64,000 nt of DNA, taken from assembly GCF_030384885.1 (NCBI RefSeq), contig NZ_CP128613.1; one strand, 5' to 3'. The translations under genes were made by a program, and so were the position numbers. The notes under the pieces are model-generated. The model worked only from the letters and a program-made list of their open reading frames with translations, did no database searches and had not been told where the DNA came from. Shown here piece by piece: positions 25,920-30,897 of this stretch (the first letter of the stretch is position 1; every line of letters begins with the position of its first letter). This DNA is from Escherichia coli. Its GTDB lineage: Bacteria > Pseudomonadota > Gammaproteobacteria > Enterobacterales > Enterobacteriaceae.

Positions 25920-28900
25920 TTATTCCGGGCGTGGCTTCAGCGGGAAGCGGCGGCGCACCAGCACAAAGAACAGCGGCACGAAGTAAATAGCCAGAATCGT
26001 GGCCGAAATCATCCCGCCCATTACGCCAGTACCCACCGCATGCTGGCCACCGGAACCGGCCCCAGTGCTGGTTGCCATTGGCAATACGCCGAAGATAAAG
26101 GCCAGAGAGGTCATCAGAATCGGACGTAAACGCTGACGGCAGGCGTGGAGCGTCGCTTCAAACAGGTCGTGGCCTTTTTGGTTCATCTCGTTAGCAAATT
26201 CGACGATCAGGATGGCGTTTTTCGCCGATAAACCAATCACCGTTAACAGGCCTACCTGGAAGTAAACGTCGTTTTCCAGCCCGCGCAGCCAGGTTGCCAG
26301 CAGCGCGCCGATAACGCCCAGCGGCACGACCAGCATTACCGAGAACGGCACTGACCAGCTTTCATACAGCGCCGCCAGACACAGGAATACCACCAGCAAT
26401 GAAATGGCATACAGCGCCGGAGCCTGCGCGCCGGAGAGTCGCTCCTGATACGACATCGCCGTCCATTCCAGACCAAAGCCGCTTGGCAACTGCTTCACTA
26501 ACGATTCCATAATATCCATTGCAGTACCGGTGCTGACCCCCGGCGCGGCTTCCCCGACAATCTCTACCGCTGAATAACCGTTATAGCGTTCCAGACGCGG
26601 CGAGCCTGTTTCCCAGCGTGAGGTCGCGAAAGCAGAGAAGGGGACCATGCCACCATCTTTATTTCGTACATACCAGAGATTGATGTCATCTGGCAGCATG
26701 CGATATGGCGCAGCGGCCTGCACATAGACTTTCTTCACGCGACCGCGATCCATAAAGTCATTCACATAGCTTGAACCCCACGCGGTTTGCAGCGTGTCGT
26801 TAATATCGTCGATAGCAACGCCCAGCGCCTGAGCTTTACGCTGATCGATATCAATCTGCAACTGCGGACTGTCGTCAAGGCCGTTATGGCGTACACGGGT
26901 TAACTCCGGATTTTCCGCCGCCAGAGCCAGCAACTGGTTACGTGCTGCCATCAGCGCATCGTGACCCGCACCAGCGTGGTCCTGCAACTCCATATCAAAA
27001 CCCGCAGAACTGCCAAGGCCGCTAATTGCTGGCGGGCTGCTGGCGATAACGCGAGCTTCTTTAATCTTATTAAATTCCTTCGTTGCACGTTCGATAATGG
27101 CAAACGAGGTGCCGGTCTTACTGTCGCGTTCGCTCCAGTCTTTCAGGCGGATAAACATTCGTGCCACGTTTTGCCCGTTACCCCCAGGGCCAGAACCAAC
27201 GGTGGCAAACACCGACATGATATTGTCTTTTTCATGGGTGAAGTAATACTTCTCGATTTGCTCAACGACTTTCAGGGTCTGTTGCTGAGTTGAACCGCTG
27301 GGTAATTGCACCGAGGTAGTGAACATGCCACGGTCTTCCAGTGGCAAGAACGACGTCGGCAAACGCAGGAACAGGAACACCATGCCGCCAAGCAGCAGGA
27401 CATAAATCACAATCCAGCGCAGGCTACGGTGGAGAATTTTCGCCACCCCTTTTTCGTAGCGTTCGGCGTTACGATTAAACATCTGGTTAAACCAGGCAAA
27501 AAAGCCTTTTTGCCCGTGATGCTCACCTTTTTTCAGCGGCTTAAGTAGCGTGGCGCACAGAGCCGGAGTGAGGATCATTGCTACCAGTACTGACAGCACC
27601 ATCGCCGCAACAATGGTAATAGAAAACTGGCGATAGATAGCTCCGGTGGTGCCACCGAAGAAGGCCATTGGCACAAATACCGCCGACAGCACCATCGCAA
27701 TCCCGACCAGTGCCCCCTGGATCTGCCCCATCGATTTACGTGTGGCTTCGCGAGGAGTGAGTCCTTCCTCACTCATAATACGTTCGACGTTTTCCACCAC
27801 CACGATGGCGTCATCCACCAGCAGACCGATCGCCAGCACCATCGCGAACATGGTTAAGGTGTTGACGCTGTAACCGAAGGCGTAAAGTACGGAGAAGGTT
27901 CCCATCAACACCACCGGCACGGCGATAGTTGGTATCAGCGTGGCACGGAAGTTTTGCAAGAACAGATACATAACGAGGAAAACCAGGGCGATAGCTTCCA
28001 GCAGCGTTTTCACCACGTCTTCAATGGAGGCTTTAACAAATGAGGTGGTTTCATATGCCACCTTGTATTCCAGTCCGTGTGGGAAGTACTGCGCCAGTTC
28101 GTCGAGACGATTGAGTACCAGCTCCGCTGTTGCCATTTCGTTCGCGCCGGAGGCCAGTTTTACCCCCAGCCCGGAGGCTGGCTTACCGTTGAAGCGGCTG
28201 AGATAATCGTATTTCTCTGCCCCCATTTCGACGGTGGCGACATCGCCCAGCCTTACTTCTGAGCCGTCCTGATTCACCCGTAAGGTGATATCGCGGAACT
28301 GTTCTGGTGTTTGCAGCAGTGACTGGGCGTTAATGGTGGCGTTGAGCGCCTGCTTATCGACGGAAGGCGTACCACCAAGTTGCCCAACCGCAATCTGCGC
28401 GTTCTGTGACTCAATGGCATCAGTGACATCTTTAGCCGTCATCTGAAAACTGTTGAGTTTCGCCGGGTCCAGCCAGATACGCATTGAATATTGCGAACCA
28501 TAGGCATCGATATCCCCGACGCCATTCACGCGGCTTAATGGGTCCTGAATATTACTGGCAACGTAATCGGCAATATCCTGCTTATCCATCGAACCATCGG
28601 TAGAGACGAAGGCAATGGTAAGAATGTTGGTATCGCCGGTTTTACGCACCGTCACGCCCTGATTTTGCACCGCCTGCGGCAACTTTCGCATGGCTGATTG
28701 CAGCTGGTTTTGTACTTGCTGCACTGCTTCGTCCGGATCGGTGCCCGCTTTAAAACTTAAGGTGACAGATGCCTGACCGGTGCCACTGCTTTGAGACGAC
28801 ATATACATGAGATTATCGAGGCCGGTCATATTTTGCTCGATAACCTGGGTCACGGTGTTTTCCAGCGTCTGAGCCGATGCGCCGGGATAGTTAGCGGTTA

Positions 28901-29033
28901 CTCGCACATTAGGCGGTGCAAGATCCGGGTATTGTTCAACGGGCAATGAGAAAATCGCCAGGGTTCCTGTCAGACACAACAGGATTGCCAGCACCCAAGC
29001 AAAAATGGGGCGATCAATAAAGAAATTCGCCAT
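25920..29033 (-). CDS. acrD: RND multidrug/aminoglycoside efflux pump AcrD
   Basis: 1037-aa RND transporter, [23 protein letters not shown]... Confidence 0.9.
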
Positions 29034-29104
29034 TAAAAGAGGACCTCGTGTTTCTGCGTATTGTTGTTGGCATGCCTTGCTTCACTGTAGCGGCAAGGTA
29101 CGGA

Positions 29105-29121
29105 CCAATCGTGGAGAAAAA
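29105..29121 (-). promoter_or_regulatory. Candidate BaeR box upstream of acrD
   Basis: Reverse strand TTTTTCTCCACGATTGG resembles the BaeR consensus TTTTTCTCCATDATTGGC as I recall it; ~75 bp upstream of acrD start. Confidence 0.45.
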
Positions 29122-29196
29122 AAGGAGTTAATGTAAATTATCATGCCCTTTTATACTGAACCTTAAGTGCAAGTATTCTTTGGTCAGTAGGTGGCA

Positions 29197-30897
29197 TTAC
29201 ATTAGCTGGCTTTCCTCACCCTCCGCAGAGCGAAAGCTAATACTCACTAACGTGCCGCCACCGGAAGGTTGTGAAAAAGTCAGCGTTCCACCCAGTCGTT
29301 CCGCGCGTTCGCGCATAATATTCAGACCATAGTGACCTTCGGGTTCTTTCGGTTCTCCGATGCCAATCCCGTTATCACGGATATAGACTGTGTGATTGCC
29401 GTCCGGTGCGGTGACGCAGCTGACGGCAATTTCGCTGGCGTTGGCGTGCTTCATCGCATTGAGTACCGCTTCGCGAATAATTTGCAACAAATGCACCTGC
29501 ATTTGCGCATCCAGCGCCAGTGTTGGCAGACGGCAGTCGAGAGTCAGTTTTGCGCTGGTTTGATTTTGTAACGTATCCAGCATTTCCCGCAACGCGGAGG
29601 GAAGATCCGCTTGCTGCAGCGTCAGGCGGAACGTGGTCAACAGCTCGCGTAACTGTCGATAAGCATCATTCAATGCCTGGGAGAAATCGGCCATGATATT
29701 TTGTGCGGTGGCGTTATCTTCCGGTATCGAACGTTTAAGTAACGTCAACTGGATACGTAAGTAAGAAAGCACCTGGGCCAGCGAATCATGTAATTCCCGT
29801 GCGATGGTGGCACGTTCTTCCATCAACAGTAACTGCTGAAAATGCTTCTGCGCCTGATTAAAGTACAAACCGCGCCCCAGCATCGACGAAACGCTGTTAA
29901 GCAGCGGTTCTGATGATGACACGTGGCTATTTTGCCAGTGCAGTTCGCCGTAAACCGTCTCTTGCATCGTTACCGGTAAAATCTGCATCGGCAATTCGGG
30001 GTTTGGTTTCCCTTCACTAATCCGCCAGTTTTCACCGACATTCAACTCCAGATATTCAGCCGCTTCATTGTCGCGAACAATCTGCAAAATATGGCGGAAA
30101 CAATGCACATCTATCTGGCTGGTGTTCAGCGCCTGCGAACACTGATACAACACCTCCAGGCGACGCTTGGCCTCGTGGAGATCACGGGTTTTTTCTTCTA
30201 CTGACGCTTCCAGCGAACGATACAATTTATGCAGCTCGCTCGACATCTGGTTAAAGGTTTTGGCCAACAGTCCCAGCTCATTGGGCAGACTGGTATCCAG
30301 CGGCGGCGAATCGAACTGGCCGTGTTCAATACGCTGACTGGCGGTAACCAGCTGATTCAGCGGGGCAACCACCTGATGGCGTATGCGGCGCAGAGTAAAA
30401 AAGACCAGCGTGAAAATACCGATGCCGCCAGCCAGGGAGATCGCCACCACCAGCAGCATTTTGCGTTCGGCGTAGTGCTGTAAAGCCAGCACGAACAGGT
30501 CTATCTGATTAACATAATTATTAATATTGGCCTGATACCACGGCAAATCGCCCTTGCTGAGCCGATTATTCATCTCCAGCCAGTTGGCATTCAGATGCGC
30601 ATAGCGGGTTTTTACTGCCTCTGGCACATACCAGACGTTGAGATTGGTTAACACCGGTGAGTGCAGTGCCTGTTGGAACAGCTGGCGATGCGCATTGAGT
30701 TGTGGACTGCCGCTTTGCAAGTCGTAGCCCAGGCGGTAACTCTGCATACGCAACGATCCGGCAATATTGATAGCCTCAGCGTCGCGCAAACTGCTCGCCA
30801 GAGTTAGCAGTGCGATACCCGTGGAAAGAATCGACAGCAGCACAATGTAAAAAAAGGCCCGGGCCAAACTGGCCGAGACGGGGCGTTTAACAATCAC
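29197..30897 (-). CDS. narQ: Nitrate/nitrite sensor histidine kinase NarQ
   Basis: Two TM segments, HAMP, H-box ELHDSLAQ, C-terminal ATPase; start assigned to GTG at 30897 (MIVKRPVSASLARAF) giving 566 aa. Confidence 0.85.
   Translation of the reverse strand: MIVKRPVSASLARAFFYIVLLSILSTGIALLTLASSLRDAEAINIAGSLRMQSYRLGYDLQSGSPQLNAHRQLFQQALHSPVLTNLNVWYVPEAVKTRYAHLNANWLEMNNRLSKGDLPWYQANINNYVNQIDLFVLALQHYAERKMLLVVAISLAGGIGIFTLVFFTLRRIRHQVVAPLNQLVTASQRIEHGQFDSPPLDTSLPNELGLLAKTFNQMSSELHKLYRSLEASVEEKTRDLHEAKRRLEVLYQCSQALNTSQIDVHCFRHILQIVRDNEAAEYLELNVGENWRISEGKPNPELPMQILPVTMQETVYGELHWQNSHVSSSEPLLNSVSSMLGRGLYFNQAQKHFQQLLLMEERATIARELHDSLAQVLSYLRIQLTLLKRSIPEDNATAQNIMADFSQALNDAYRQLRELLTTFRLTLQQADLPSALREMLDTLQNQTSAKLTLDCRLPTLALDAQMQVHLLQIIREAVLNAMKHANASEIAVSCVTAPDGNHTVYIRDNGIGIGEPKEPEGHYGLNIMRERAERLGGTLTFSQPSGGGTLVSISFRSAEGEESQLM

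Follow-up and report, generated by a model that had tools for sequence, protein, structure and literature searches.

The stretch of Escherichia coli DNA analyzed here (64 kb; hereafter, the window) carries acrD and its upstream neighbour narQ, both on the minus strand. The acrD CDS (25920–29033), defined by its translated ORF and by the RefSeq annotation of strain 2013C-4282, encodes an RND aminoglycoside/multidrug efflux permease of 1037 aa, and narQ (29197–30897, same annotation) encodes a nitrate/nitrite sensor kinase. A 601-bp query around the site considered below is 100% identical to strain 2013C-4282, and of 5426 complete E. coli genomes, 5424 were matched by it. The narQ stop codon bounds a narQ–acrD spacer of 163 bp (29034–29196). 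A sequence-only reading of the window had reported a BaeR-box-like sequence upstream of acrD at 29105–29121, and a 17-mer of this kind is indeed present there, reading CCAATCGTGGAGAAAAA on the plus strand and TTTTTCTCCACGATTGG on the minus strand, which is the acrD strand. With acrD starting at 29033 and narQ ending at 29197, the 17-mer falls within the spacer, in the acrD orientation, 72–88 nt 5′ of the acrD ATG (29033).

The BaeR motif consensus TTTTTCTCCATDATTGGC is credited to Nishino et al. (2005) in three later papers (PMC3915751, PMC3799227, PMC11644481). In E. coli K-12 MG1655, the acrD instance of this motif is TTTTTCTCCACGATTGGC, the mdtA instance is TTTTTCTCCCTTATTGGC, and the spy instance is TTTTTCTCCATAATTGGC; combined, the three yield exactly TTTTTCTCCATDATTGGC. 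The first 17 bases of the K-12 acrD instance are TTTTTCTCCACGATTGG, followed by C. Thus, the 17-mer of the window corresponds to the first 17 bases of the 18-mer at the same locus and is identical to them at 17 of 17 positions, so that it is the known site itself rather than a mere look-alike; the 18th base (29104) is T in the window and C in K-12. Over the full 18 positions (29104–29121), 16 match TTTTTCTCCATDATTGGC, and the resemblance to the consensus of acrD, mdtA, and spy claimed from the letters alone therefore holds. The motif scan that had been proposed as a check was run with TTTTTCTCCATDATTGGC: allowing up to two mismatches, the acrD site was the only match in the window, with 0.02 matches expected, and 2 of 100 dinucleotide shuffles contained any match at this threshold.

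As TTTTTCTCCATDATTGGC already fits acrD itself, we avoided circularity by deriving a second consensus without acrD, from mdtA and spy (TTTTTCTCCMTWATTGGC). The acrD site differs from it at three positions, and matches of such quality are expected 0.20 times per 64-kb window. The sequence match alone is therefore suggestive, being moderately significant but not overwhelming. If the match must also fall in the right spacer and orientation, only ∼2.5e-4 matches are expected by chance (0.20 × 163/64000 / 2, by hand arithmetic). Position, orientation, and conservation together settle that the site is more than a chance match. The second published BaeR consensus, the Yamamoto 9-mer TCTNCANAA, is matched only inexactly at acrD, where the site reads TCTCCACGA; with eight matches in the window against seven expected, this 9-mer is too short to be specific and is not diagnostic.

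Over 501 bp around the site (28828–29328), the window and K-12 are only 95.2% identical, but the 89 nt bearing all the upstream elements described below are the same. The difference at the 3′ end of the motif involves two adjacent bases, the 18th and the one after it (C for T), yielding GGTCCG in the window (29102–29104 region) versus GGCTCG in K-12. Of 5426 complete E. coli genomes, only 18 carry the GGTCCG variant, which, along with the identity to K-12 of 95.2%, points to a minority lineage or a minority allele at narQ–acrD as the origin of the window. Since these two positions vary between genera, the variant is unlikely to have a functional effect.

To characterize the site by phylogenetic footprinting, we collected AcrD orthologs from one genome per species using the first 400 aa of AcrD as the query. 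This yielded 57 orthologs (75–100% identity) from Escherichia, Citrobacter, Enterobacter, Kosakonia, Pluralibacter, Cedecea, Erwinia, Pantoea, Serratia, Yersinia, Hafnia, Rahnella, Pectobacterium, and Brenneria. AcrB-like paralogous loci (L062–L084, 62–65% identity) were left out as uninformative, because the gene upstream of them is an adaptor (acrA-like). Allowing for a single mismatch, TTCTCCACG was located upstream of acrD in 56 of the 57 orthologs, at a distance from the ATG varying from 79 to 348 nt. An alignment anchored on this sequence has 57 rows, the window and 56 orthologs, and all column counts below refer to the 56 sequences other than the window.

The anchored alignment revealed a near-invariant block, gaTaATTTACAyTwTCTCCTywwTTTCTCCACGwTT, with the core ATTTACAyTwTCTCCTywwTTTCTCCACGwTT. 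Across the 57 upstream regions, information per column is ∼2 bits in the block and ∼0 in its flanks; hence, the site is conserved against the background of the flanking non-coding DNA, as would be the case for a BaeR site. In particular, the bases at 29119–29110 (TTTCTCCACG) are identical in 53–56 of 56 orthologs, and the TT at 29108–29107 in 54–56, while 29109 is either A or T. The 3′ end of the motif, GG at 29106–29105, varies between genera, G being present in 25 and 16 of 56 orthologs, respectively. Farther upstream, C at 29127, T at 29126, and C at 29124 are shared by 54–55 of 56 orthologs, and each position of TTTACA (29137–29132) by 53–55. The conserved letters are thus the CTCC and CACG positions, with variable T/A positions between them. 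Judging from the alignment, the 17-mer covers only the promoter-proximal half-site and a T-rich spacer; the functional unit would reach ∼16 nt further upstream, and the conserved module extends to ∼29137–29142.

Within the block, the putative promoter-proximal BaeR half-site with its flank, TTTCTCCACGATT (29107–29119, minus strand), has the core TCTCCAC at 29117–29111 and would span approximately −42 to −30 relative to the −10 hexamer proposed below. It is preceded by an upstream direct repeat, ACTCCTTTT (29120–29128, minus strand), whose CTCC core lies 11 bp 5′ of the proximal CTCC. Both cores (29127–29124 and 29116–29113) are conserved in 54–56 of 56 orthologs, and their arrangement is the tandem direct-repeat architecture expected of a dimer of the OmpR/PhoB family. 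In E. coli, the upstream repeat is degenerate: it reads ACTCC, and its 3′ positions are T-rich instead of CAnAA.

The ACTCC form of the upstream repeat is due to A at position 29128. T occupies this position in the upstream regions of 54 of the 56 other Enterobacterales, E. albertii among them, giving TCTCC. Among 5426 complete E. coli genomes, 5337 contain an exact match to the K-12 59-mer around the box, with A at 29128; its version with T at 29128 is matched exactly in none of the complete E. coli genomes searched. A genome labelled as E. coli in GTDB, strain SCPM-O-B-8794, has the ancestral TCTCC in the upstream repeat, yet the first 400 residues of its AcrD are 100% identical to those of the window; either this allele is a rare one within E. 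coli, or the genome is mislabelled or belongs to a cryptic lineage. From the sequence comparison, A29128 is possibly a lineage-specific weakening of the upstream BaeR half-site.

Nine bp 5′ of the upstream repeat lies the invariant TTTACA element (29132–29137, minus strand; approximately −60 to −55). One candidate identity for it is a third, degenerate BaeR half-site; another, since its other strand reads GTAAA, is half of a CpxR site. TTTACA is as conserved as the BaeR repeats, but its distance from the upstream repeat is 9 bp rather than 11 bp. Further upstream, a weak CpxR-like sequence, ATAAA-AGGGC-ATGAT (29140–29154, minus strand), is conserved only in part; it corresponds to the CpxR site GTAAA-agcgc-ATGAT predicted in Salmonella LT2 106 bp upstream of acrD (PMC4846824).

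Downstream of the block, a putative sigma-70 −10 hexamer, TACAGT (29084–29089, minus strand), starts 21 nt after CTCCAC. It is conserved as TAnAGT, the five fixed positions (T, A, A, G, T) being shared by 51–56 of 56 other orthologs, and the spacing CTCCAY-N21-TAnAGT is seen in 55 of 57 aligned sequences (the window and the 56 orthologs). With this hexamer as −10, acrD transcription is expected to start near 29077. At the spacing of 17 bp, the −35 position is occupied by ACGATT, which matches TTGACA at two of six positions and is no −35 hexamer. Moreover, no consensus sigma-70 promoter (at least 9 of 12 matches to TTGACA-N16–18-TATAAT) was found in 28900–29350, which is consistent with an activator-dependent promoter. 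A terminator scan of the same interval yielded no intrinsic terminator-like hairpin after narQ; hence, with none in 29034–29196, read-through from narQ into acrD is compatible with the sequence.

An inverted repeat, CCTTGC/GCAAGG (29098–29093 and 29080–29075), brackets the putative −10 hexamer, and similar inverted repeats in other registers are present in Enterobacter, Kosakonia, and Erwinia. RNAalifold applied to this region in 45 orthologs predicted no consensus pairs. Since, in addition, the arms pair in different registers across genera, a conserved RNA or DNA structure at CCTTGC…GCAAGG is unsupported.

The same geometry is seen at the other BaeR targets. In K-12, spy has CTCCAT-N21-TACACT and mdtA has CCTCCAT-N21-TACACT; spy orthologs of Salmonella and Citrobacter have CTTCAY-N21-TAYACT, and mdtA orthologs of Citrobacter and Klebsiella have CTCCAT-N21-TAAACT. 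Thus, like acrD, the sites of spy and mdtABCD-baeSR have a TCTCCAY-type core 21 nt 5′ of a TA.A.T hexamer, a T-rich stretch upstream of the core, and, further upstream, additional TCT(C/T)CA-like repeats. The mdtA and spy orthologs listed came only from Citrobacter, Klebsiella, and Salmonella (protein identity of at least 82% and at least 89%, respectively), so that the comparison across the regulon is shallow. Taking TACAGT as the −10 hexamer, the acrD block would lie at a distance that allows for activation, in the acrD orientation and upstream of a BaeR-dependent gene.

There are differences as well. The invariant TTTACA is found at acrD alone among acrD, spy, and mdtA. The 3′ AATTGGCG of the spy site is shared by different genera, unlike the 3′ end of the acrD motif. 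At mdtA, the element conserved across genera is TTTCATAATTCCTCCAT, 10 bp upstream of the K-12 18-mer TTTTTCTCCCTTATTGGC. This 18-mer is the closest to the published consensus, but it is not conserved in Klebsiella (TTTTTAAGCGGCGTTCGC) and C. freundii, whereas TTTCATAATTCCTCCAT is conserved and has the CTCCAY-N21 spacing to the −10-like hexamer. Judging from only four additional loci (one nearly identical to K-12, three from different taxa), the published consensus may rest on a misregistered mdtA instance.

BaeR is a winged-helix response regulator of the OmpR/PhoB family, whose dimers use 11-bp direct repeats. The PhoB pho box and OmpR sites are tandem direct repeats of ∼11 bp replacing the −35 element at promoters with only a −10 element. 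The acrD block resembles them in that each repeat combines conserved 5′ positions with 3′ positions rich in A/T. It differs from the pho box in the recognition sequence, TCTCC versus CTGTCAT, and from PhoB and OmpR sites in that its 22-bp unit ends 17 bp from the −10 hexamer, compared to ∼10 bp.

Published data on acrD agree with stress-dependent control by BaeR. In K-12 treated with 5% ethanol, deletion of baeR lowers acrD expression with log2FC −2.9 (7.5-fold down, p = 2e-39), with no change in unstressed cells (PMC7657598, supplement). For an acrD promoter–lux fusion to respond to indole, BaeS/BaeR have to be supplied (PMC4780735). In Erwinia amylovora, purified BaeR shifts an acrD promoter fragment carrying TTCTTCACGATT in EMSA, while tolC is not shifted (PMC3915751), and this motif falls within the conserved acrD block. 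These observations support the sequence-only reading in treating the site as the envelope-stress control point of acrD. PMC2731931 also names acrD in a set of four BaeR sites reported for E. coli and describes the effect of CpxR on acrD as strictly BaeR-dependent. On the other hand, ChIP-exo in K-12 under 5% ethanol detected BaeR peaks at spy and mdtA but not at acrD, and the authors judged the control of acrD by BaeR to be indirect (PMC7657598). A contribution of a weakened upstream repeat to the absence of the acrD ChIP signal is a matter of speculation.

Taken together, the identity to the K-12 site, the phylogenetic footprint, the N21 spacing common to spy and mdtA, the 11-bp repeats, and the published BaeR dependence make it very probable that the conserved block serves BaeR as its activator site in the acrD promoter. 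It is improbable that the block is instead the site of another regulator, CpxR or a further unidentified factor, with BaeR acting on acrD indirectly. This would account for the absence of the ChIP-exo peak at acrD despite BaeR-dependent expression, and deletion of cpxR in K-12 indeed lowers acrD expression (log2 −1.88; PMC7657598, supplement). Moreover, the GTAAA complementary to the invariant TTTACA would fit CpxR, and a CpxR-like GTAAA-N5-ATGAT has been predicted adjacent to it in Salmonella (PMC4846824). However, compared with the CpxR box GTAAA-N5-GTAAA, the acrD spacer offers a single GTAAA and the weak ATAAA-N5-ATGAT by the BaeR repeats, and neither the 17-mer nor the most conserved part of the block, TTTCTCCACG, resembles a CpxR box. 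No match to GTAAAN5GTAAA with up to two mismatches was found in the spacer (29034–29196), compared to 54 matches against 42 expected in the whole 64-kb window, and we rejected a CpxR box as the explanation of these bases. Strict dependence of the CpxR effect on BaeR, as described in PMC2731931, argues against CpxR acting here in its own right. The TCTCCAY core and the −10-like hexamer are equally far apart at spy and mdtA, where BaeR binding is confirmed by ChIP, and indirect action of BaeR is at odds with its binding to the Erwinia ortholog in vitro (PMC3915751).

A yet smaller probability is given to the block being a basal promoter element, that is, a T-tract or UP-like element with a −35 substitute serving constitutive transcription, with no regulator involved. 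The block is T-rich, lies directly upstream of the conserved −10 hexamer, and is deeply conserved along with it. Still, the deletion of baeR has no effect in unstressed cells and a strong one under stress, a pattern not expected of a constitutive element; the positions conserved are specifically CTCC and CACG, while the T/A positions between them vary, and the motif is common to two other stress-induced promoters. Chance resemblance without any function is hardly credible at all. The expectation of 0.2 matches with three mismatches to the acrD-free consensus per 64 kb would leave some room for it, but the block is near-invariant across Enterobacterales, while the flanking spacer has fully diverged, and the site lies in the correct spacer and orientation, at the proper distance from the −10 hexamer, and is identical to the described K-12 site. 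As seen in the alignment, the phylogenetic footprint effectively refutes this reading already.

If the block is the BaeR activator site, acrD would be controlled as follows. Envelope stress in the form of indole, tungstate, copper/zinc, or ethanol would lead BaeS, the sensor kinase, to phosphorylate BaeR, and BaeR dimers would bind head-to-tail on the 11-bp repeats ACTCCTTTTTT (29128–29118) and TCTCCACGATT (29117–29107). With TACAGT as −10, the dimer would be centred at about −43, with the CTCC cores at approximately −50 to −47 and −39 to −36, and this centre would place the proximal protomer at the position of the −35 hexamer. As the promoter has a usable −10 hexamer (29089–29084) and no −35, the bound BaeR would recruit sigma-70 RNA polymerase in a class-II-like manner, switching acrD on. 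CpxR reportedly enhances the activation, but only in the presence of BaeR. The comparisons made here show the identity to the K-12 sequence, the deep conservation, the repeats, and the spacing to a −10-like hexamer that spy and mdtA share, while BaeR-dependent expression and binding in vitro come from the literature. We infer here the arrangement of the protomers, the assignment of the −10 hexamer and the transcription start, and the contact with and recruitment of polymerase.

More tentatively, and with doubts prevailing, we propose that a three-part module, TTTACA-N3-TCTCC-N6-TCTCCACGwTT, positioned 21 nt from the −10 hexamer, is the real cis-regulatory unit, larger than the 18-mer. If so, recognition would not involve the 3′ TTGGC of the published consensus, which would be a coincidence specific to Escherichia, and the mdtA instance in the consensus would be displaced by 10 bp from the conserved mdtA site TTTCATAATTCCTCCAT. 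Also in that case, A29128, as a lineage-specific T-to-A change of E. coli, would weaken BaeR occupancy, which could explain why acrD lacks a ChIP-exo peak despite its BaeR-dependent expression.

The comparison with K-12 confirms the 17-mer at 29105–29121 as the already known BaeR motif of E. coli acrD, a conserved and ordinary site. It had been proposed as a useful landmark, and as a known regulatory site in a well-studied locus, it is a valid one for annotation, although by itself it adds nothing new to biology. The footprint, the geometry shared with spy and mdtA, and the A29128 substitution could improve the position weight matrix of BaeR, and the same refinements could help to reconcile the reports of in vitro binding with the negative ChIP-exo result. 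For E. coli, the BaeR site of acrD would be the place where envelope stress caused by indole, metals, or ethanol becomes expression of an aminoglycoside/multidrug efflux pump.
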